Shown piece by piece: positions 1,005 to 40,245 of a stretch of DNA of 64,000 bases. The first letter of the stretch is position 1. Every line of letters begins with the position of its first letter. The notes under the pieces are model-generated. The model did no database searches and was not told the origin of the DNA. It saw only the letters and a program-made list of their open reading frames with translations. Origin of the DNA: Scenedesmus sp. PABB004 (lineage: Eukaryota). The stretch lies in contig JABVCE010000012.1 in the NCBI GenBank assembly GCA_014905635.1, positions 806,001 to 870,000 of the forward strand. Reading direction: 5' to 3'. The position numbers and the translations under genes are program-made.

Positions 1005-2157
1005 GCGGCGCGGCGGCTGCGCAGGCCTCTTTGCACCGCGCCGGCGGGCAGCACCGCGTGCACTGCGTGCTTTTCAAAGTTTTCAGAGTTGTGCTGCGTG
1101 CTCTCTGAGCATTGCGTGTTCAACGGCGCGAACGCTGCCGTCATTGATTGCGCGCCCACTCGGTGGTGGGTGCGCCAGAGGCACTGTTGGCAGCACTGTG
1201 TTGGCGGTGGCGTCTTGTGGCACAGGCGCGCGGCGCGCCAGCACCACCAACCCAGCACCAATCGACCATCATCCATCCACCGGCGGCCGGCAGCGCGTTT
1301 TGAACCCTGAGCCTCTGTGAGCGCGGGGGACCGATCGGTGTGATGCCCGCTGCAGCGGCGCATCCATGGTGCGAGGTCGATCTCTTGAGTGAGGATGATC
1401 CGGAATCGTTGGTTGAGGGTGGAGGAGACCCCTCCTCCAAATCGCGGTTGCGCACGTGGTGTGGACTGGCCTGGCGTGGCGAGGAGTCTGTCGTGGGCAT
1501 TGACTGTGTGTGTGGTGTGCGTCGGGCGGCTGCGGCCAACAATTGTTTGGCTGCGAACTGAGCTGAGCTGCCGACTGGGCCGCGCGGGCCCCCGCCCGGC
1601 GCCGGGCGGGGCGCCGGCGGAAGGCTGCAGAGGAAGGCGGCGCCGCCTGGGTGGGCCGCACGGGCCTGCGCTGCTGCTGGCCAGGGCGCGCGGCCAGAGC
1701 GCGGCGCGCCACGGCGGGGACAGCGGGCGCTGTGCGCGGTGCCGGCGAGGGGTGCGAGGGTTGCGAAGCGCTGCGGCGCCGCGATGGGAAGGTCACCAGT
1801 GCAATACGTTTACTTCAGTTCTTGGGGGCACGCGGAGTTGCCCCGAGCAGCTCCGTCACCGGCGGTGGTCTCAGAGAGAGCCCGAACTGCATAAAAGATG
1901 CATGAAAACAGCCACCGATGCCAAGGGAAGCTGGTTGGGTGCGAGCCAGGGGCAGAAGTTGAGGAGGGTCTCAGATCGCAGACCGCAGCACAGCTCAGCA
2001 GTACAATGTGACGTGTCAGCCCCGCACCTCGCCTCGGTCGTCAGAACGCGCAAACGCGCGCGCCCGGCACGACGCGGCGTTGCGACCGCTGCCGGTCAGG
2101 GCGCCCCCCCCACCAGGGCGGGCCGGCGCAGGGGCCGCCCGGCCTCGCGCGAGCCGC

Positions 2158-3547
2158 CTAGTAGTGGACGCGGCCGGGCAGCTTGCTGAAGTCCTCCCAC
2201 ACCGGGATGGCCTCCTCGCGCATGTACTCAATGGCGGGCAGCGTCCTCTCCCCGGGCTTCTTCGAGAACTCCCTGCGCGCGCGGCGGGCGCGGCGGCGGG
2301 CGGCGCAGCGCAGGGTTGGGCCGGGGGCTCCAGGGTCGCGGCGGGCGCCGCGCGCGCGGCGAGGGCGCGGTGCCGGGCTGCAGCGCCAGCTGGCGCCCAC
2401 GTCCCGCCGCCCGGCGTGCACGTGTCACCGCGCCCCACCTGTAAAAGTCCTCGTCCTCGAAGCGGCCGTACTTCTTGACGTCCGCGATGGTCGTGGCGTA
2501 GAACACAGTCGTGATGCGCGCCCAGTAGCACGCGCCCATGCACCTGCCGCACGCGGGGGCGGGCGCGCGGGGCGGGTGAGGCGGAGCGCGGCAGCGCGCG
2601 GGGCGCGCGGGGCGCGCGGGGCGCGGCGCGCGCGGCCGGCGGCAAGGGCAGGGCAGCGCACGCGCGTGCGCAGCGCGGTGACGGGTGCGCGGGCTCACAT
2701 GGGGCAGGGCTCGCTGCTGGTGTAGAGGACGCAGTCCTTGAGCAGGGGCGTGCCCAGGCGGTTGGCCGCGTCGCGGATGGCGGCGATCTCGCCGTGCCTG
2801 CGGGGCAGGGGGCGGGCGTGGGCGTGGGCGGCGGGGGGGGGGGGGGGGGGGGGCGTGCGTGCGTGCGTGCGTGTGTATGTGTTGGGGGTGGGGTGAGAAG
2901 GGCAGCGCAAGGAGCGAGCGCAACTCAACGAGCGAGCGCTGACCGGGCCGCCGCGCAGGGGCGGGCGCGCGCGTGCTCGCGCGCGCGGCGCGCTCACCAG
3001 GTGGGGTCGTTGTGGGCGATGACGTTGTTGTAGCCCTCGCCCACGATCTTGCCGTCCTTCACGATCACGCAGCCGAAGCAGCCGCCTGCCGGGCGCGCGC
3101 GCGCGGGGCGGTCAGCGTCGCCGCGCGCCGGTCAGCGCGCCGGTCAGCGACGGGCGGTGGCACGGGCGGCGCACGCACGCGGGCCGCAGCGCCGCCTCAC
3201 CCGACTGCTTCTCCACGCCGGCCTTGCGGGAGAGGTAGATGGCGCGCTCCATGAAGGAGGGGTGCGGGTGCTTGATGCCTGCAGCAGCAGCAGGCGGGCG
3301 TCGTCAGCGGGCCGAGGAGCGGGCGCCGCGGCACGCCCGAGAGCTGCCGGCATGCCAGGCGCGCGAATGCGCTGCCCAGCGCGGCGCCAGGGCGCGGGGT
3401 CGCGGAGGGCCCGCTGCGCCAGCCGGCGCGCGCAGCCCGCAGCTCACAGTCGGCGTCGGAGGGCACCGTGCTCATCTTGGACGGGTGCGTGAAGCGGTCC
3501 TCGGTGTGGGCCGCCATCGGGTCGGAGGGGAAGGAGCGCTCCGCCAT
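2158..3547 (-). CDS. Guanine/guanosine deaminase (cytidine-deaminase-like Zn family), copy 1, 6 exons
   Basis: Spliced product contains FMERAIYLS...[40 protein letters not shown]...LYTSSEPCPMCMGACYWARI, with the HxE and PCxxC Zn motifs. Confidence 0.9.
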
Positions 3548-3656
3548 GTCGAGCGTCTGGGCTGGCAGCGCGGGCCTGATCGGGCTGTGCGGGTGCTCGT
3601 GAGGTCAGCGCAGGTCGAGGGAGCTGAGAGGGGCGGTGCGGCGTCGCGGCGCCGGC

Positions 3657-28821: not shown

Positions 28822-30445
28822 GCCGCCGCGCCGCTGCCTGCCGCGGCGGGCCTCCTCGGCGGCGCGCCCGCGCTCGTGCCCGCGGGCGCGGCGGCGGGCG
28901 TCGTCCGCGACGCGAGCACGCCCGGCGCCGAGTGGCACTGGCAGGCGCTGCTCGGCACCGTGCCGGAGGAGGAGGGCGTGCTCTGGGGCGACGTGCGGCT
29001 GTCGGTTGAGCAGTCGGCCGCGCTCGCGGCCGACCCCAGCGCCTCGGCCGTGATCTACCAGAGCCTCTCCGACGCGGCGGCGGCGGCCGCCGCGGCCGCC
29101 GCCGCGGCCGCGGCCGAGGCGGCCGAGGCCGGCGGCGCCGCGCCGCCGCCAGGGCTCGCCCTCGTCGCGTCGTCGGACCGCGTCTACTATTTTTTCGAGG
29201 ACGGCGGCGTCCCGCCCGCGATCACGCTGCATGGCGACGGCGGCGGCGGCGGCGCGGGCCTGCCGTCGCTGGAGGAGCTGCGCGCGGCGGTGGCCGCCGA
29301 GGCTACCGCCGCCGCGGCCGCGGCGGGCGGCGGGCCGGGGGCGCAGCTGGCGCTGGAGCCGCCGCCGACGGCGCAGCAGCAGCAGCAGTCGCCGCAGCAG
29401 CCGGAGCGCGACGTGGTGGAGCGGGGGCCGGTCATGCACCCCGCCGCCGTGTCGCCGGCCGCGGCGCAGCGGCGCAGCCAGGTGCGCGTGGCGCTGCCGG
29501 CCGCAGCGGCCGCCGCGGCGGCGACGCTGTCGTCCGCCGCCTTCTCGCCGGGCGGACTGGCGACGCAGCTGGGCCCGCTCACGGCGTCGTCCCCCACGCG
29601 GCGCAGCCTGGCCGGCAGCCTGGCAGCCGCGCCGCCGGGGGCCTGGCAGCGACGGCGGCGCCGCGCAGAAGCTCGCTGCCGTCAGACCCAGAATCAGGAG
29701 CGCCGGCGGCAGCGCGCAGCAGCAGCAGCAGCAGCAGGAGCCGCAGCCAGCAGCGCGCGTCGCAAGCCAGGGGCAGCCTGCAGATTGGGGCCATGGGCTC
29801 GCCCGTTGCAACGAGCAGCGGCCAGCCGCTCGGCGGCAGCTCGACGCCGCCGCGCGGCAGCGGCGCCAGTGGCACCAGCCGCCGCCGCCGCAGCCAGAGT
29901 CGCGGCCGCAGCAGCAGCCGCACGGCGCCAGCGAGGCGGCGGCCCGCGCCAGCCGCTCGAGCAGCGGCGCCGGCGCGAGCCGCGCCAGCGGCGGCAGCCG
30001 CCGCGGCTCCGCGGCTGCGCGGGTGGCGGCGGCGGCTGCGTCGCCGGGCGCCGGCCCGGGCGGCGGCCTCGGCGGCCAGCCCGGCGCTGCCGCGGCGCTG
30101 GAGGCGGCCGAGCAGCTGCTGGTGACGAGCTACCACAACCCCCTGGTGGCCCTCGAGGCGGCAGGCTTTGGCGCGGACGACAGCGACGCACTGCTGCGCG
30201 CGGGCCTCGCGCCCGGCCTGAGCGCGGCGGCGGGCGCGCCCGGCGGCGGCGGGGCCGCGCGCGACGAGGGCGCGCCGGGCGGCGTCGCCGCGGAGGCCGT
30301 GCCCGCGCACGTCACGCCGCTCGGCAAGGAGCGCTCGCGTGGCGACGGCGGCGGCGAGGTGGAGGGCGAGAGCAGCGCGGGCGGGCAGCTGCACTGGAAC
30401 CCGCTGTACATCGCAGACGGCCGCGGGTTGCTGGCCAGCTACTGA
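25028..30445 (+). CDS. Large low-complexity protein with an N-terminal coiled coil; apparent frameshifts at about 28490-28690 and 29640
   Basis: Long coding-like frames (LLADQMQLQDLVHTLIADHRASLLERRRLQQQL; SDRVYYFFEDG; LHWNPLYIADGRGLLASY-stop) and 5' GT-AG introns. Confidence 0.65.
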
Positions 30446-30980
30446 GGCGCCTCGCCGCAGCGCGTGCGCGGGCGGCCCCTGGCGGCGGCGTTCACATGGC
30501 GCGTTGCACGCGCGCGCCGGCGAGTTAACTGCTCCTGTCCGCGCGCCGCGCCAGCTCTCCCGCGGCCGCCAACAGCCCGGGCCGGCCCAAAAATGCGACT
30601 CAGTCGAGAGGCTCAGTGGTTGTGGGTGATGGTGCTACACACTCGAGTGACGAGGGGGATGCCTGGGGCAGGTCAATTGGTACAGCCGGCGCCGCTCGAT
30701 GGTGATGTACAACACGTGCCCTCGGTCACACGCACGCAGGCGAGCCGCCCGCCGCCAGGCCACCGCAGCGGCGACCCTTTCAAACGCGGGCGGGCACGCG
30801 CGCGCGCCGGCCGTTGCCGGGCCGCGCCGCCGCGCCGCCGGCCGCTCTCTATCTATCGTACAGCCGCCCCGCGCCCGGCCGCGCGCGCGGCGGTGTTTGT
30901 GTGGTACATCATACAGCTGCCCCCCCCCCCCCCCCTGGCCAGCTGGCCTGCAGGTGGGCGGTGCGCTCACGCTGCGCCGC

Positions 30981-31490
30981 TCACTTCATGCCCGACACCA
31001 GCGCCTCGGCGAGCGCGGCGAGGCGGAGCAGCTGCCAGACGACGACCGCCGCGACGACCGCGTCGTGCGCGGCGGCCCAGCCGCGCCACGCGAGGTTGCG
31101 GGAGTAGCGCTGCTCCAGCTTCCAGGTGTAATACTCGACCTGGCGGCGGCGGCCGCGGCGGCGGCGGCGAGGTGGTGGGGCGCCGCCGGGCGGCGCGCGG
31201 CGCCCGCTGCCCCGACCGGCAGCCGCCGCCGGGCGCACCATTTGGTGGTAGCGCGGGCTGCGCGGAGAGGAAGGGGTTGGGCGCAGGCAGAGGCGGCGTG
31301 AGGCGCGAGGGCCGGCCGCGCGCACGGCAGCAGCAGCAGCAGCGGCGCCAGCGGGCAGCGGGCCGCACCTGCGCCGGTAGGGCTTGCACAGGGAGACCGC
31401 CATGCCCCTGGCGCCGCAGGCCAGGACCTCCTTGCCCAGCGCCGGCAGGTGCACGAGCACCGGCAGGCCGAGCCCCGGCAGCAGCGGCAT
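30981..31490 (-). CDS. Possible small hypothetical protein
   Basis: Coding-like segments MPLLPGLGLPVLVHLPALGKEVL and VEYYTWKLEQRYSRNLAWRGW...; splicing phase unresolved. Confidence 0.35.
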   Translation of the reverse strand: MPLLPGLGLPVLVHLPALGKEVLACGARGMAVSLCKPYRRRCGPLPAGAAAAAAAVRAAGPRASRRLCLRPTPSSPRSPRYHQMVRPAAAAGRGSGRRAPPGGAPPPRRRRRGRRRQVEYYTWKLEQRYSRNLAWRGWAAAHDAVVAAVVVWQLLRLAALAEALVSGMK

Positions 31491-31811
31491 CGCAGCAGCA
31501 GGCCGCGCTGCCTGCTGCCTAGTGGCAGGCCGCTGCTGCTGCCTCGTGGTGGCAGGCCGCGGTGCCTGCTGCCTGGTGGTGGTCACCCACGCTGTGGCGG
31601 CGCAGCGGCGCGGCGGCTGGGCGGGCAGCGAGCGCGACCGTCGTCAAAACTCAAACCCCGCCAGCAGCTGGGCCGCCGCTGCTCCCGCCGGTCCCCCCGC
31701 TCCGCCCGCACAGCGCCCGCGCACGTGCCAGCTCCGCGAGCGAGCGGCGAGCGGCCGGCGGCGGCGGCGCCGCGCGCAGCAGCAGCGCGCGCTGTGCACG
31801 CAGCGGCGGCG

Positions 31812-32148
31812 ATGGACGACGACGGCGGCGAGCTCTGCGAGTGCCCCGTCTGCGGCCTGTTCCTGCCCTGCGCTGAAATCGAGGCGCACGCGGGCGGCCA
31901 CTTTGGCGCGAGCCAGCCGGCGGCGGCGTCGGCGGCGGAGCAGCAGCAGGCGCGGGCGCGCGAGCCGCCGGACGACTGCGTGCTGCTCGATGACGACGGC
32001 GACGCGGTGGCCTGCCCCTACGGCTGCGGCGCGCTGGTGGCGCTGGCCGACCTCGACAGCCACGAGGAGGCGCACCGGTCCGCGGCGGCCGCGGCGCGGC
32101 GCAGCGCGGCGCCGGCCGCGCGCACGCACGCCCAGCGCCCTGCCTTCG

Positions 32149-32181
<33 letters not shown>

Positions 32182-35100
32182 CCCGCAGGCTGCAGGAGAT
32201 GGAGGCGCAGCACGCGAGCGCGGCGCAGGCGGCGCTGCAGCAGGAGCACGAGGAGCTGCAAAAGCAGTTTGGCTTCTCGGACAAGGTGAGGCGCCAGCGA
32301 CCAGCTGAGGCAGCAGCGGACACGGGCTCAACCGCGCCTGCGGCGGCTGCAACCGCCCCACAACCGCCCGCGCAACCGCCGCCGCAGCGGCCCGGCAAGT
32401 GTTGTGCCTGCGGCGAGGAGGGCCACTGGGCGGTCGAGTGCCCCCGCAGCACGGCGGTGGCCGCCGTCAGGTGCCGGCGGCGCCTCGCGAGCGCGCCGGC
32501 CGCCCGTGCCCCTCACGCGCTCGCCTCACGCAGCTACCCGCGCGCAGGGGCCGCGCGCCGCTGAGCACGGAGCCGGAGCAGCTGGCCGTGGCGCAGGCGC
32601 CCGACCCGCACCCCGAAGTGCACGGCGTCGACGTCGTGCCGCTGCTGGCGGCGTGCTTCGCCGCGCAGCCCAAGGCCCACAGCACCGTGCTGCTCTCGGG
32701 CGAGCGCGCGCTGCGGGGCGCGCCGCGGGCGGCGCGCAGCGCACGCGCGGGCACCCAGCGCCGCACCGCCGCCGCCCGCCCGCTGCGCGCCAGGCTCCGT
32801 CGGCTTCCACAGCGGCAGCGGCGCGCCCGACATCGGCTGGGGGTGCGGCTTTCGCAACATCCAGATGCAGGCGCGCCGCCCGGGCGCCGCGCGGCGCGGC
32901 TGCGGCTGGGCCCCGCCGGCCGCCCCTGCCTGGCGCGCCGCGGCCGACCCGGCGCGCCGCTGCTGCCCAGGCGTCCCACCTGCTCATGGCGGGCGGCGCG
33001 GCGTACCGCGAGGCGCTGTTCGGCGGCTGCGGCTTCGTGCCAGACGTCGGTGCGGCCGCGACGCGCGCGCCGCGCGCGCTGTGCGGTAGCGGTCTCAGCG
33101 GCGGCGGCGCCGCCAACGCCCGCGCCGCCCGCGCTGCAGCGTCGCTGCAGGCGTGGCTCGAGGCGGCGTGGGCGGCCGGCTACGACCCCGGCGGCGCGGC
33201 GATGTTTGGGCGGAGCGTGCAGGGCTCGCGCAAGTGGATCGGCGCGACCGAGGCGGCGGCGCTGCTCCGCTCCTTTGGCTGCCGCGCCCTGCTCACTGAG
33301 TTCCATGGTGCGCGCGGCGGCGGCGGCAGCGGCGCGGCCGTTCTTTTTTTCGTGTTTTTTGGGGGGGGGGGGCTCTCCAAGGTGTTGCTGCGTTTATGTT
33401 CGTTTCGCGTCGCCGCGCGCCGGCGCGCGGGGCCGCCCCCTGCGCCGCACGCGCCCCGCCGCGCCGCGCTCGCTAGCCCGCCGCGGGGCGGTAGGCGTAG
33501 ATCATGTGGAGGTTGCAGGCTCTGAACCGCGGCTCCTGCGTGACGTCCACGGCAAAGCCCTTGCCGCGCAGCAGCGCGCACGTGCGGCCCACGCGGCCGT
33601 CGATGTCGTGCACCTGCGCGCTGACCTGCCGGATCTGCGGCGGCGGCGCGCGGCGAGCGGCGGCGTGAGCGTGAGCGCGCCGAGCCGGCAGCGCGCAGCC
33701 GCGCGCCCGCGTCGTGCGCGCGCGCGCGCCTTGGGCCAGTCGCGGTCGTCCACGCCCGCCAGCACGTCCCACTCGGCGCGCTCGACGTTGATTTTGAGGA
33801 GCCCCACCTCCCTGCGCGGCCGCGGGGCCGCGGGGCCGGTCGGCCGGCCCGGGCGGGCGCGGACGCCGCGCTCCGCCGCCCGCCCGCGGCGCACGGCGGG
33901 CGGCGCGGCGCGCGGCGCGCACTTGATTCCGTGCTCCGCGATCAGCTCCGACACGGTGACCATGCGGCACACCAGCGACTCCGCGGGGCGCAGCAGCAGC
34001 GCGCGGAACGCGAGCGAGTGGATGCACCGGTAGAGGGACGGCGAGCAGCTGTGGGGGGCGCGCGCCGCCGGCGCGTGCGTGCGTGCGTCGGCAGGGGTTC
34101 AGGCGCGCCGGGGCGCCGCCGCCGCCGCGGCTGCCGCGCGCCGCGCCGTGCGCCGCACCGCGCGAGCGCCTTGCCCACGTCCTCCAGCCGCGAGAAGCTC
34201 TGCGGCCGGTGCAGCACCAGGCTGCGGGGCGGCGCGGCGCGGTCAGCGCGCCGTCCTGCGAGCGCGCCCTGCGAGCGCGCCCTGCGAGCGCTTCCTGCAA
34301 GCGTGCGCGGCGCGCCTGAACGTCGCCGCCGCCGCGTCTGCGTCGTCGGGGTACATCGTGCTCATCGCGGTCAGGCGCGGGTAGTACACAAACGCACGCG
34401 CCGGCCGGCTGCCCGCGTCGCCCACGCCTGCGCGCGCGCGCGCGGTGAGCCCTGCGACGTGGCGCGCGGCGGCGGCGGCGGCGGCGGCGGCCGCGGCGGC
34501 GGCCGCGCCGCGCACCCGCGCGCACGGGCACGATGCGCGCGACCTTGAGCCCGCGCGCCGCCGCCCACGCGGCGTAGCGCGCGGCGTTGGCCTCGAGCGC
34601 GTCGCAGACGTCGGGGATGGGCTCGATCGCGTACACCGTCCCCGCCTCGCCGACGACGGGCGCAGCCATGCGGGCAAAGCTGCCGACGTTGGCCCCGCAG
34701 TCGAGCACGACGTCGCCTGCGGCGCGGTTGCGGTTGCGGTTTCGGCTGCTGCAGGCGAGCTCAGCGCAGCTGCCCGCGACCCGGGCCAGCTGGTGCCAGG
34801 GCCGCCGGCCGCCGCCGCTGCCGGCGCCGGCCGGCGGTTGGCGTGCCGCGCTGCCGCCGCCGCCGCCTCGCCTGGCCGCAGCGCAATCGCGCCCTGGTCA
34901 AAGTAGATCTGGTTGTCGCGGTTGGACACCGCCTCGGCCGCGGCGTCGGCGTGGCTGACGGCCAGCAGCTCCAGGCCCGGCAGCGCGGCATCGCTGAACG
35001 CTCGCAGCCGCGGCGGCGGCCGCGGCTTGCCGCCCATGCCGGCCTCAAGCACGTACGACGACTCCGGAGTGCTTACACGCTCGCCGCTGGACCGCACGGG

Positions 35101-37864
35101 CGCGCCGGCGCAACCTCGCTCCGCCGCTGCCGCCGCGCTCTGTTCAAACGCGCTCGCTGAGACGACTCCTCGACAACGTGTGGCATGCACAGCCAACGAT
35201 GTTGATATGTGTGGCATGCACGGCCGACTCCCGCCGCTGCTGCTCAAAGCCGCACGCGCGGCGTGAACCACAAAACTGCCAAAACCGCGCCGCCCCGCCG
35301 GCGCCGTCCGCGCGCCGCGCGCGATCTTGTACACCGCCGGCGCCGCGTGCGCCTCGCGCGCAATCACTTGTACACCGCCAGCACGCCCGCGCGCGCCTCC
35401 CAGTCCTGCGTCGCGCGCGTCCACACCGCGAGGCCGCCGCTGCGGCCGCGGCCGACCACGATGTCCCGGTCCACGTAGGCGTAGAGGAAGAAAGGGAGCT
35501 TCTTGGCCTCGCTGCGGCGCAGCGCACGGCAGCGTTCAGGCAGGCAGGCAGGCGGCGGCGCGCAGCGAGAGCGGCACGCAGGCCGCGCGCGCCGCGGCGC
35601 GCACGCGGGGTCCATGTCGGCGACGGCCTTGGGCTCCTTCTTGATCGGCCAGCTGAACCGCCACGGCCCGAGGCGCACGTTCATGGCCACGACGTCGAAG
35701 CTCAGCTGCCGGCCGCGCACCGCGTAGGGCCCGTTGAACGTGAGCGACGCGAGCGGGCCGAGGAAGACGCCGTTCTCAAAGTCGGCGCGGGCGGCGTCAA
35801 ACTTCTGCGCGGGCAAGCACGCGCAGCGCGGTCGACAAGCGCAGCGCGGTCAGCAAGCGCAGCGCGGTCAGCAGGCAGGCGCTCGGCGCGCGGGCGGCGG
35901 GGGCGGCCGCGGCGGGCGCGGCGGCCGGCGCCCCGCTGCTCGCCTGGCAGGCGGCGATGGGGAAGTACAGGCCGCCCTTGCTCGGCTGCTGCTTCTTGGC
36001 CGCCGCGACCTGCTTCTCGTTCGCCGTGAAGACGAGGCGCCAGTGCGTGCCCGGCGCCGCCAGCAGCTCCTGCCAGCCGTCGGCCTGCGCGGGCGGGCGC
36101 GGGCACGGGCGCGGCGTGGCGCTCGGCGCTCGGCGGCGCTGCCGCCCGCAACCGCTCGCCCAACCGCCCGCACCGGCAGCTTCTGGGCCTCCAGCTCCAG
36201 CATCGCGCTGAGAACCGCCGGCGGCGGCACGCTGCCGGGCTTGGCCGCCGCCGCCTTGAGCGCGGCGACCGCCCCAGCGTCCGCGGCCACAGCAGCAGCG
36301 CCTGCGCGGCGCGGCGCGGCGCGGCGCGGCTCGGCGGCTGCCCGCGGCGGCGTGCGCGCAGCGCGGACGCTCGGACGCGAGCTCCTGGCGCGCCTGGGAG
36401 CGCGCACCTGCTGCCACGCGCGTCCGCTGGGGCCGGCGCGGCGACCAGGAGATGGCCGACGCCGCACAGCGCCTGCGGTGGCGCAGCGTGCCCGCTCAGC
36501 GCACCACCAGCGACTCTCTGCAGCCGCAGCCGCAGCGTGGGGGGCGTCGGCCGCGCACCTGTGCTGGCCCGCGGCCAGGGGCCGCTGCGCTGTTGCGCCG
36601 GCGGCGAGCATGGCGGCGGGCTGCGGGGCGCGTGTTGGGCTGGGGGGAGGGGAGCAGGGAGCCTGACTGGCCCTGGCCTGGCTGAGGGCCGCTTGAAGGG
36701 CGTGCGCGGCGCCCGAGCTGCCACGGCCCCGCCCTGAACCCCGCGCGCCGCCGCCGCCGCAACGCAGGTGTCGCCGCGCCCGTCACTGTCGACGCGCGCG
36801 GCGCGACCATCCACGAGGGCGTGGAGTGCAACGTCTGCGGCGCCTGCCCCATCGTCGGGCTGCGGCACAAGTCGTACCAGACGCCCGACTACGACGTCTG
36901 CGGCGCCTGCCGCGCCAGCCCCGCGGCGGCGCCGCACGCGCCGTTCCGGTCTATTGGCGAGCGTGGGCGCGGCGGCGCCGGCAGCGGCGCGGGCAGCAGC
37001 GCAGCCGCAGCGGGGCGCGCCGGCGGTGGCGGCAGCTGCGCAGATGCGGCGCCGGGGGCGAGCCCCGGCGCCAAGAAGCAGGCGCAGTCCAGCATCCGGG
37101 CCTGGCTCGGCGTCCCGGACGGCGGCCGCGGCGCCGCCGGCGGCCGCGGTGGCGCGGCCGGCTCCGGCGGGCGCGGCAGCCTCACCGTCCGCGCGCAGCA
37201 GCTGAAGGATGCGGAGCGCCACCGGCCGCTGGCCGAGTGGGTGTGGGCGTACTTCAGCCAGGGCGGCCGGGATGCCGCCGACGCCGCCAACGCCGCCGCC
37301 GCCGACCCCGGCGCCGGCGCCGCCGCCGACGCGCCGCTGGCGAGCCCGCCGAAGCAGCCGCGGCGCGAGAGCCCCGTCGTGCTCACCGGTCGGCCGCCGC
37401 TGTACCTCCAGCACGAGGGCCACAGCCGCACCGTGGTCGGCATCGAGCGCACGCTGCCGCCCGGCGGCCGCGGTGCCGGCGCCGGCGCCGGCGTCGGCGG
37501 CAGCGGCAGCGGCGGGGCCGAGTACAGCCTGATCGTCCTGGACCCCGGCCTGCCCGCCAGCGAGGTGCTCGGCGCGCTCAGGTGCGCCGCGGCAGGGGGT
37601 GGGCGGGACACGCGGCAGCGCCGCGCCGCCGGCCGCCGCCCGGGCCCACGCGCGCGCGCGGCGGCGCCGCCGCCGCCGCCGCCGCCGCCGCGCCGCCGCG
37701 CCGCCAGGAGCGTCAACGGCTGGCAGCGGCGCGTCAAGCGCGGCATGCACAGCCTCGCGCGCCAGGCCGAGTTCCAGGTCGTCGCCGTCGCGCCGGGCGT
37801 GGTGCCGCCGGGCGCGGCGCGTGAGGCGCTGAAGCAGATGCGGGCCGAGGACATCTACAAGTGA
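31812..37864 (+). CDS. ZUP1: ZUP1/ZUFSP-like peptidase C78 (deubiquitinase family) with Zn fingers; contains a 3.46-kb intron at 33308-36767
   Basis: DIGWGCGFRNIQMQ (catalytic Cys), LQAWLEAAWAAGYDPGG, KWIGATEAAALLRSFG; after the long intron HRPLAEWVWAYF, PPLYLQHEGHSRTVVGIE (His) and LIVLDPG (Asp). Confidence 0.9.
33473..35037 (-). CDS. FkbM-family SAM-dependent methyltransferase, nested in the ZUP1-like intron
   Basis: PGDVVLDCGANVGSFA, VYAIEPIP, FVYYPRLTAMSTMYP, VGLLKINVERAEWDVLAGVDDRDWPK, IRQVSAQVHD. Confidence 0.88.
35364..36611 (-). CDS. PAP/fibrillin-like (lipocalin-fold) protein with a transit-peptide-like N-terminus, nested in the ZUP1-like intron
   Basis: VLSAMLELEAQK, HWRLVFTA, ENGVFLGPLASLTFNGP, PFFLYAYVDRDIVVGRGRSGGLAVW; four in-frame introns. 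Confidence 0.75.
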
Positions 37865-38040
37865 GGCGCGGGCGCCTCGTGAGGCACCTCACGGCGCGGC
37901 GCGGGCGTGCGAGCGAGCGGGAGCGCGCGAGCCAGCGAGTGAGCGGCAGCGGGCGAGTGCGCCCGGCGAGCGTGCGAGTGGCGGGCGCGAGCGGCGGCAA
38001 GCGGCGGCTGCGAGGTTCCAGGCAACCGCACGCAGTTGAA

Positions 38041-38110
38041 TGGCTCCAGAGCCGGCGCAACAAGGCTCCCTGGCCGCGCTGCCCCGCGGTGGCGGCACAA
38101 GCCCGCGCGC
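38041..38110 (+). pseudogene. Degenerate fragment of the first exon of the adjacent GH5 gene
   Basis: tggctccagagccggcgcaacaaggc-tccctggccgcgctgc-cccgcggtggcggc aligns, with two deletions, to about 38803-38892; both encode WLQSRRNKA. Confidence 0.6.
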
Positions 38111-38700
38111 GCGCGTACCGGGCGTGCGTTGACCGGCGGCGGCTGCGCTGGAGCTGAGTGCGACCGCTCAGGCCGGGCGCGCCGTGCACGCCCTTGCTCC
38201 GCCCGCCGGCAGCGGCGCGGCAACCGGTCGTCGCAGCGCTGCAGCTCAGGACCGAGCTGGCAGCCGCGCGCAGCGGTCGCCTGCACTGCACGCACGGCCA
38301 GAGAGCTCCTGGCGCGGCCGGTCAGGGGGCTGCGGCTCGGGCGAGCGCGCCCCGGGCAGAGCAGCACCAAAGGCAGCACCCGGCTGGTGAGACGCGCGCG
38401 CGCGCCGGCGCGCAGGCTCCCTGTGCGAGCCCTGGGTCAGGCGCGTCTGCCCCGGGCTGCGCGACGCGCGGCGAGGGCGCGGGGCGGCGGTTGAGCTGCA
38501 CCACCCGCGCCCGGTGACCGCCCCGCCCGCCTCGGCGCGACCACTCTCGGCGCGCCACGGCCCCTCGCTCGCCTCCAGCGGTGCGCCCGTACCTCCACGC
38601 CGGCCTGCGCAGCCAGGAGCGCCGCGCCGCGCGCGCAGCAGGCTCGCGGATCGTTGGCCAGCCCTCGCCGCGCCACGCCTTGAGCCCGGGGGGCGTCCCA

Positions 38701-40245
38701 ATGAGCCAGGCGGACCTCCAGGTGGTGGTGGACGCGGCGGAGCCGGACCTCAAGGCCCCCGCAACGGCCGCCCCGGGCAAGGCCAGCAGCAAGCTCCCCA
38801 GCTGGCTGCAGAGCAGGCGGAACAAGGCCATCGCTGGCTCCCTGGCCGCCCTGCTGCTGGTGCCCGCCATCGTGGCGCCCGCGGTGGTGGCCAGCCAGAA
38901 GCGGGCGGCCAGCCAGTCCCGCCGCAGCAGCAGCCTGGCCGGCTCGGATCTGGACGGTGTGTCCTTCGTCGGCGCCGACGGCGCGCTCGCCACCGACACC
39001 GCGCTCAAGGTGCCGGAGCGGTCGTTCAACAAGACCGCTCCGCGCGTCGCCAAGCGCGCTGAGGTGGTCCCCGAGACCTGGACGCCCTTCGTAAAGATCA
39101 ACGACGGCCAGGTGCGCGCGTGGGAGCCGCCGCGGGGCGAACGGGCGCGCCGGCGCGCGCAGGGGCGGCGATGGCGCCCGCGCATGCCCCGTTCTGCAGC
39201 GAGGCGGGGGCGGCGCAGGCGCGCCGGGGCGCTGCCCGGCAGCTGCGCTGAGGCTAAGCGGTCGCTCCGGGCACGGCCGCGAGGGGCGGGGCGCCGGGTC
39301 ACCTGCGCGGCGTCACCCCGGCGGCGAGGCGCCGGAGCGCTGCCCGCCGAGCCCGCCGCCGCGCGGTCGCCGCCGCAGTTCGACGAGCACTGCCGCCCGC
39401 TGTACCCCGTGGGCTTCAACGCCTTTGAGCTGACCACGCTCGCAGCGAGTGAGCGGCGGGCGCGGCACGCGCGGCGGGCGCAGACGCGGCGCCTGCAGCG
39501 GGCGCGGCAGCAGCGGGCGCGGCAGCAGCGGGCGCAGCTGCAGCGCCTGCAGCCGTGGCAGCAGCAGCCGTGGCAGCAGCAGCGGTGCCAGCAGCACCAG
39601 CGCCCGCAGCAGCCGCCCCTCGCTGCGCCCGCTGACGTGCCCCCCACCCCCATTTCCGCGCGTGCCGCAGCGGGGCGCAAGGATGACGTGGACACCGTCT
39701 TCAAGAACGCCGCCAGCATGGGCATGACCGCCGCACGCACGTGGGCGCACAGCATCAGCGAGCGCTTCCCCTTCCAGGTGCGGCGGACGCCGCGCCCCGC
39801 GCGCGAGGCGGCCGCGCCCAGCAGCGCGGCGCGCCGCGCGCGCGCGCGCGCGCCCCGTGGCCGCGCCCAGGAGCCCCGCGCTGCGCGCGCCCACCGCTGA
39901 CCGCCGCACCCACCTCCGCCGCACCGCGCCGCCGCAGACCGCGCCCGGCAAGTACGACGAGACGGGGCTGGAGGCGCTGGACTATGTGATTGACAGCGCG
40001 CGCCGCCACGGCATCCGGCTGATCCTGTCGTTCATTGACAACTGGAAGTACTACAACGGCGTGGACCAGTACGTCGACTGGTGCGGCCCCGGGCGCACGA
40101 TGCCGCTGCCCAAGGACGCCGGCGGCGACACCGACACGCTGGTGCGCGCGCGCGCGCGCGCGCGCGCGGCGGCCGCGCCGCCCGCCGGGCCCTCCGCCGC
40201 GCCGCGCCGCCGTGCAGCGCGTGGCCGACCCCGCCCCGCTGCTCG

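Follow-up and report, generated by a model that had tools for sequence, protein, structure and literature searches.

A window of 64,000 nucleotides (nt) from the alga Scenedesmus sp. PABB004 (contig JABVCE010000012.1, positions 806,001 to 870,000) was analysed, and all coordinates given here refer to this window. It contains a gene of the ZUFSP/ZUP1 class of deubiquitinases (31812-37864, plus strand), which possesses nine exons and encodes a deduced protein of 630 amino acids (aa). Two further genes on the opposite strand are located wholly inside its intron 7 (33473-36611 within 33308-36767). On the evidence presented below it is rather probable that the locus represents a functional host gene in which two guest genes are nested. 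The three gene models were built from coordinates, reading frames and homology only. According to the accessible part of a comparative study, Scenedesmus sp. PABB004 possesses a genome of 39.8 Mb with a guanine-cytosine (GC) content of 78.5%, 1.3% repeats and 7,092 genes (PMC12571836); the GC content of the window is ~74-85% throughout. The following features were modelled:

31812-32077, 32189-32285, 32388-32470, 32548-32699, 32794-32870, 32971-33049 and 33140-33307, plus strand: host exons 1 to 7 (exon model, Pfam), with two putative Cys/His fingers of UBZ-like type as well as a CCHC knuckle and the N lobe of the C78 peptidase domain
33308-36767, plus strand: host intron 7, 3,460 nt, phase 1, donor GTGCGCGC, acceptor with a C-rich tract and CAG
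33473-35037, minus strand: guest gene B, FkbM-family methyltransferase-like, 7 exons, 303 aa
35037-34872, 34716-34516, 34427-34316, 34221-34159, 34048-33923, 33811-33730 and 33634-33473, minus strand: exons of gene B, the last one ending with the stop codon
35364-36611, minus strand: guest gene A, fibrillin/plastid-lipid-associated-protein-like, 6 exons, 244 aa
36611-36559, 36472-36408, 36301-36174, 36084-35944, 35804-35605 and 35511-35364, minus strand: exons of gene A, the last one ending with the stop codon
36768-37581, plus strand: host exon 8, with a ZZ zinc finger that a low-complexity linker connects to the C lobe of the C78 domain, including the His and Asp motifs
37708-37864, plus strand: host exon 9, C-terminal helix region (WQRRVKRG...) and stop codon, corresponding to columns 1001-1073 of the family alignment A1

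The 3' end of exon 7 encodes ...TEFH and closes with a single G at 33307 (G|GTGCGC), which is followed by GTGCGCGC. The acceptor reads ...CAACGCAG, the G of which is position 36767, and exon 8 starts at 36768. Across the intron, G and GT form a Gly codon, and the phase is 1 on both sides. The initial annotation had placed the donor at 33308 and the acceptor at 36767 in matching phase, and sequence inspection and exon modelling led to the same junction. The first 8 nt of this donor are the same as in 3 of the 18 other modelled donors, and the spliced host frame is open through all nine exons, with junctions that are either canonical or GC-AG. A CTGAAC motif, formerly described as branch-like, is indeed present at 36734-36739, 29 nt before the acceptor; the pattern has too few matches in the other introns to lend the motif weight as a branch site. 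The remaining 18 introns of the three genes measure 77-155 nt, and intron 7 is about thirty-fold larger than its neighbours. The earlier estimate of 80-300 nt for the other introns was roughly right, and the contrast is, if anything, larger than was claimed. Exon 8 has no in-frame Met codon at all, and an in-frame stop codon lies 28 codons upstream of the acceptor, so that an upstream exon is needed for its translation.

Two further observations were made on the splice sites. GC donors (GCGAG or GCGCGC) occur in 6 of the 19 modelled introns, at 32700 and 32871 on the plus strand and at 35943, 34871, 34315 and 33729 on the minus strand. A deposited protein model of this organism (P0151, see below) shares four of these six donors, and homology backs the reading frames. 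In eukaryotes, GC donors usually account for ~1% of introns, and the proportion observed here is far above this value. In addition, the first 30 nt of intron 7 (33308-33337) match a stretch of exon 8 (36963-36992) in 28 of 30 positions; both segments are GGC-rich and of low complexity, and the match is probably due to chance.

The host protein is a predicted cysteine deubiquitinase in which putative UBZ-like fingers and a CCHC knuckle precede a C78 domain carrying a ZZ finger in a plant-type loop. Exon 1 encodes two C-x2-C...H-x-H patterns, for which the best Pfam match (zf-WRNIP1_ubi, E 0.0044, 18 bits) stays under the cut-off of 26.4 bits, whereas exon 3 matches zf-CCHC (E 3.3e-05) and exon 8 the ZZ finger (E 3.6e-11). 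The profile Peptidase_C78 (PF07910) was matched exon by exon and aligned with positions 16-34 in exon 5 (26.1 bits), 58-102 in exon 7 (37.3 bits) and 104-151 in exon 8 (24.7 bits); only the exon 7 piece alone exceeds the cut-off of 29.1 bits. The pieces are collinear, and the profile resumes at position 104 after position 102 across intron 7. A comparison of the spliced protein with this profile had been proposed in the initial annotation as a check; compared exon by exon, both lobes matched in three collinear pieces across the gap. Homologues with the same architecture reach 107-123 bits against this profile.

Exon 7 aligns with residues 162-215 of the human ZUFSP chain 6EI1_A, ending with ...VDFH, and exon 8 with residues 224-240, 244-269 (His motif) and 276-290 (Asp motif), the stretches 224-240 and 276-290 being below the threshold on their own. 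HEGHSRT corresponds to QHQGHSRT and LDPG to ILDPG of the human chain. We take the Cys, His and Asp of these motifs to be the catalytic triad, as in the human enzyme. For the enzyme TcZUP, the triad Cys-371/His-505/Asp-526 is given in the accessible part of PMC8776766. The profile of the A1 alignment matched the human ZUFSP chains 6EI1 and 6FGE with an E-value of 1.8e-34, the Tribolium enzyme 7OJE with 2e-25 and Mug105 of S. pombe with 3.9e-09, whereas no UFSP chain was found at E <= 0.01; in the comparison made with exon 7, UFSP1 (2Z84) matched only with E 0.98. Judged by these scores, the host protein is nearer to ZUFSP than to the UFM1 proteases UFSP1/2. Exon 8 retains each of the 15 invariant columns of A1, and the motifs of the N lobe are kept, too.

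As had been claimed before, the Cys motif GWGCG is encoded upstream of intron 7 (exon 5, 32794-32870) and the motifs QHEGHSRT and LDPG downstream of it (exon 8, 36768-37581). Intron 7 thus cuts the predicted catalytic domain, and, since the Cys part precedes and the His/Asp part follows this intron, neither half can form a complete enzyme chain. The earlier statement that neither half could be an enzyme alone is borne out to this extent.

A side observation concerns the ZZ finger (36806-36940), which is located within the C78 domain between profile positions ~102 and 104. The same arrangement occurs in the chlorophyte homologues P0040, P0100, P0112, P0135 and P0012, in the latter twice. In the Arabidopsis enzyme AtZUP, this site is occupied by the 'plant-specific insertion', which is described as unstructured and inhibitory in the accessible part of PMC8776766; a ZZ finger is not mentioned in that part of the paper.

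A HMMER search with exon 8 against 1.84 billion representative sequences yielded 715 proteins at E <= 0.001. Among these, the five homologues named above are full-length, single chains which span the junction of intron 7, with the domain order CCHC, C78 N lobe, one or two ZZ fingers and C78 C lobe. P0040, for example, is the 807-aa protein HYH03_013102 of Edaphochlamys debaryana. The top matches P0001-P0006 and P0009 are short, and several of them begin just before the ZZ finger. They were considered as possible genes for a C half only in relatives; this was rejected, as they extend into the adjoining introns and appear to be exon-sized open reading frame (ORF) calls on unspliced contigs.

A sample of 80 metagenome loci encoding relatives allowed a comparison at the DNA level. 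Both lobes, recognised by the WIG motif (N lobe) and the HSR motif (C lobe), are present in 67 of the 80 loci, where the two motifs are 201-1842 nt apart (median 604), compared with 4,186 nt in the locus studied here. None of these 67 loci possesses a gap comparable to intron 7, and none carries a guest homologue. In five of the 13 loci inspected (L023, L025, L026, L034 and L038), the equivalent codon is likewise interrupted by a GT donor in phase 1 (DF-x-G|GT), and in these five the next coding block begins 300-470 nt past this donor. Because donors at the same codon and phase are combined with short gaps in other algae, intron 7 is regarded as an old intron of normally short length (300-400 nt in other algae). 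The structural part of the initial annotation, one ZUFSP-class gene with an intron containing two antisense genes, is thus strengthened by the continuous homologues, by the common position and phase of the intron and by the lack of Met codons in exon 8.

No other ZUFSP-like sequence, neither paralogues nor relics, was detected within the window by tblastn of the three models and the homologues, which recovered the modelled exons and nothing else. A second protein of this organism with an exon-8-like sequence was not found in the database. When the six-frame ORFs of the whole window were compared with the 80 loci, no match was obtained outside 31800-37900, and 72 ORFs flanking the host gene showed no Pfam match at E <= 1e-4.

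The guest genes span 33473-36611 and fill 3,139 of the 3,460 nt of intron 7 (91%). Exon 7 and the stop codon of gene B are only 165 nt apart, and 156 nt lie between the start codon of gene A and exon 8. The spliced frames of both genes are open from ATG to stop and orthologues match end to end, which confirms the earlier claim that the gap holds two intact multi-exon minus-strand genes. Gene B matches Methyltransf_21 (PF05050) of Pfam with exon 2 (E 1.5e-04, 22.3 bits, positions 1-47) and exon 6 (E 0.012, 16.2 bits, positions 114-136), and the deposited protein P0151, which contains exons of gene B, reaches 33.4 bits compared with a cut-off of 22.7. Gene A is 71% identical over 228 aa, through the last residue, to a protein of Tetradesmus obliquus (P0155, 242 aa), and its relatives carry the source name plastid lipid-associated protein/fibrillin. 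With the profile PAP_fibrillin (PF04755, cut-off 22 bits), the orthologues P0158 and P0155 scored 25.6 and 20.2 bits, respectively. The exons of gene A in the window did not match Pfam, nor was a PAP_fibrillin match at E <= 0.01 obtained with P0151, a model covering most of gene A. The former designation 'fibrillin-like' is therefore upheld through the orthologues, of which P0158 passes the profile cut-off, and not through the exons of gene A themselves.

Between the stop codon of gene A and the start codon of gene B only 326 nt are present (35037-35364, minus strand). The mRNAs of the two guest genes must overlap or be co-transcribed. Two short features are candidates for the ends of these transcripts:

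35073-35077, minus strand: TGTAA, putative poly(A) signal of gene A, 36 nt upstream of the gene B start codon
33344-33372, no strand assigned: tract with T7, T6 and G12 runs, 37-65 nt past the donor of exon 7, in surroundings of ~80% GC

TGTAA serves as a poly(A) signal in green algae, and the motif at 35073-35077 is one of only two in the region 30000-40000, both strands counted. The mRNA of gene B on the minus strand probably ends in the region of the tract with the T7, T6 and G12 runs. Alternatively, these runs are possibly homopolymer noise of long-read sequencing.

The public annotation of this locus differs from the models presented here. P0151, a protein of 526 aa annotated as 'fkbM' of Scenedesmus sp. 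PABB004 at NCBI, contains exon 5 of gene A with 100% identity. Mapped on the exons of the window, it shows 100% identity in 5 of 8 blocks, and the three remaining blocks, at 78-98%, extend over introns or beyond exon ends. The model starts inside gene A, skips the stop codon of gene A, continues into gene B and retains one intron of gene B. In relatives, gene A encodes a stand-alone protein of 231-246 aa, and the fusion of genes A and B in P0151 is therefore regarded as an artefact. A deposited protein identical to exon 8 was not found in searches at 149-475 and 476-2000 aa, and it seems that the public record has no model of the C half or of the whole enzyme. It had been predicted that gene predictors would split this locus. 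The annotation does fail here, although in a different form, since the guests are fused in P0151 and no model of exon 8 was found.

If one host gene with two nested guests is present, transcription of the host pre-mRNA would run across both guests in antisense orientation, and splicing from 33307 to 36768 would join the Cys-bearing lobe to the lobe bearing His and Asp. Homology, the phase and the lack of Met codons in exon 8 argue for this splice, which we infer from the exon models. Transcriptional interference between the host and its guests, or mutually exclusive expression as suggested in the initial annotation, may occur.

A hint on the origin of the nesting comes from a metagenome contig of 4.1 kilobases (kb) from an alga with 54% GC (L019), the only one of the 80 loci with a homologue of either guest. 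Its FkbM orthologue matches residues 22-299 of gene B in five blocks of 26-65% identity (51-65% in four of them). It runs antiparallel to the ZUFSP gene and its stop codon lies ~400 nt beyond the last ZUFSP exon, so that the pair is convergent, i.e. tail-to-tail (spans 1640-3572 on the minus strand and 455-1236 on the plus strand). This layout suggests that the ZUFSP and FkbM-like genes were already convergent neighbours in a common ancestor. The nesting in Scenedesmus sp. PABB004 appears to be a derived state, brought about by a local rearrangement into an old intron. The simplest route would be a local swap by which the guest block entered intron 7; equivalently, exons 8 and 9 could have moved to the far side of the guest block, and in either case the orientations would be unchanged. 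The direction of the rearrangement is likewise deduced from this comparison. For a route by duplication and loss, no relics were detected in the window by tblastn, and the repeats flanking the guest block comprise GC-rich low-complexity matches only. Both guests keep introns, which suggests an origin from the host's own neighbourhood, as in L019, and not by retroposition.

Several points weigh against one host gene with nested guests. The layout also fits four compact genes, namely the N half (forward), genes B and A (both reverse) and the C half (forward); the N half and gene B would then converge across a spacer of 165 nt, and gene A and the C half diverge across one of 156 nt. In the nested reading, a polymerase on the host gene would need to cross two antisense genes, and a deposited model joining both halves was not found. 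Furthermore, at a length of only 4.1 kb L019 reveals neither the state of its own intron 7 nor a possible fibrillin-like neighbour, and no relative closer than ~55% identity in exon 8 is at hand by which the event could be dated or selection on the halves measured.

The resemblance to four separate compact genes and the lack of a deposited model joining the halves would also be expected if a rearrangement had cut the host gene in two and no joining mRNA were formed, the halves being young pseudogenes or undecayed fragments. We consider such a broken gene unlikely. The reading frame is open in each of the nine exons and no splice junction is damaged, the residues invariant in the family are all kept in both halves, and the donor and the acceptor retain the ancestral position and phase. 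Moreover, neither the window nor, for exon 8, the protein database offered another ZUFSP-like sequence of this organism, and the accessible part of PMC8776766 reports a single family member in plants.

It is even less probable that the halves are transcribed and translated separately and that the Cys lobe and the lobe with the ZZ finger, His and Asp reassemble non-covalently into an active protease. The C half would then share the divergent promoter region of 156 nt with gene A and possess its own first exon, e.g. from the ATG at 36610. In favour of such a two-chain enzyme, all motifs are kept in both halves, and the break coincides exactly with the beginning of the loop which carries the 'plant-specific insertion' in AtZUP. 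According to the accessible part of Hermanns et al. (PMC8776766), AtZUP that has been nicked proteolytically in this loop (219-275; catalytic Cys 130) stays folded and active in vitro, and the spacing between Cys 130 and the insertion matches the spacing between Cys and DFH in 6EI1_A. A two-chain enzyme is therefore biochemically conceivable. A plus-strand ATG at 36610 with a phase-1 GT at 36632 and an intron of 136 nt to the acceptor of exon 8 is also present. However, the donor of this mini-exon (GTGTTG) is unlike all 13 modelled GT donors, and by a rough estimate the mini-exon is likely due to chance; its ATG is merely the reverse reading of the palindromic CATG at the start of gene A (36609-36632 region). 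None of the homologues shows the split form, and the short matches P0001-P0006 are, as outlined above, exon-sized ORF calls extending into the adjoining introns.

That the guest block of 3.1 kb was misplaced in the assembly and the true intron is short can hardly be assumed: the homopolymer runs T7, T6 and G12 adjoin the left junction and the FkbM gene lies outside the host gene in L019, but the assembly comprises 77 contigs with an N50 of 1.3 Mb (accessible part of PMC12571836), which indicates long reads and makes a 3-kb misassembly unlikely, the block is flanked by nothing repetitive beyond GC-rich low-complexity sequence, and the deposited model P0151 maps to the same exon order.

With one host gene and two nested guests as the preferred reading, the locus represents a well-delimited nesting in a compact and extremely GC-rich algal genome. 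The host intron is ancestral, and the host neighbourhood can be recognised as the source of at least one guest. These two features together suggest that the nesting came about by local rearrangement and not by retroposition. The locus also reveals a concrete error in the public annotation, i.e. the fusion of the guests to one 'fkbM' protein and a host enzyme seemingly without a full model, and it bears on the question of how transcription of a host gene across two antisense genes is dealt with in a green alga. For researchers working on deubiquitinases, the ZZ finger within the catalytic domain of chlorophyte ZUFSP enzymes may in addition be of interest.

Among the enzymes with solved structures, human ZUP1/ZUFSP (6EI1, 6FGE) and TcZUP of Tribolium (7OJE) are the best relatives of the host protein. 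The Cys, His and Asp motifs as well as the WIG...DFH and WxW-YF blocks align, and the N terminus of the host protein carries candidate UBZ-like zinc fingers. In contrast to the human protein, the host protein possesses a CCHC knuckle and an insertion of ~140 aa with the ZZ finger, in place of 8 residues (215 to 224) in the human chain. AtZUP (At5g24680) is a ZUFSP of the plant lineage with an insertion loop at the same place of the catalytic domain; as far as the accessible part of PMC8776766 describes it, this loop is unstructured and inhibitory and nested genes are not reported for AtZUP, whereas the loop carries a ZZ finger here and in other chlorophytes. The homologues P0040, P0100, P0112 and P0135 share the order CCHC, C78(N), ZZ and C78(C) with the window protein but are modelled as single uninterrupted proteins.

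Nested intronic genes, in which a host gene contains guest genes, are a well-known arrangement in animals and plants. The locus resembles these cases in that complete guests on the opposite strand lie in one host intron which is far longer than the neighbouring introns. It differs from them in the presence of two tandem multi-exon guests that occupy nearly the whole intron, in the guests apparently originating from the host neighbourhood, in the compactness of the genome (39.8 Mb, 78.5% GC) as described in the accessible part of PMC12571836, and in the length of the other introns, which measure ~100 nt. No paper on nested genes in green algae was among the matches listed, by which their absence is not shown. 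The locus is thus a new and tidy example of nested intronic genes in an unusually compact alga and not a new kind of system.

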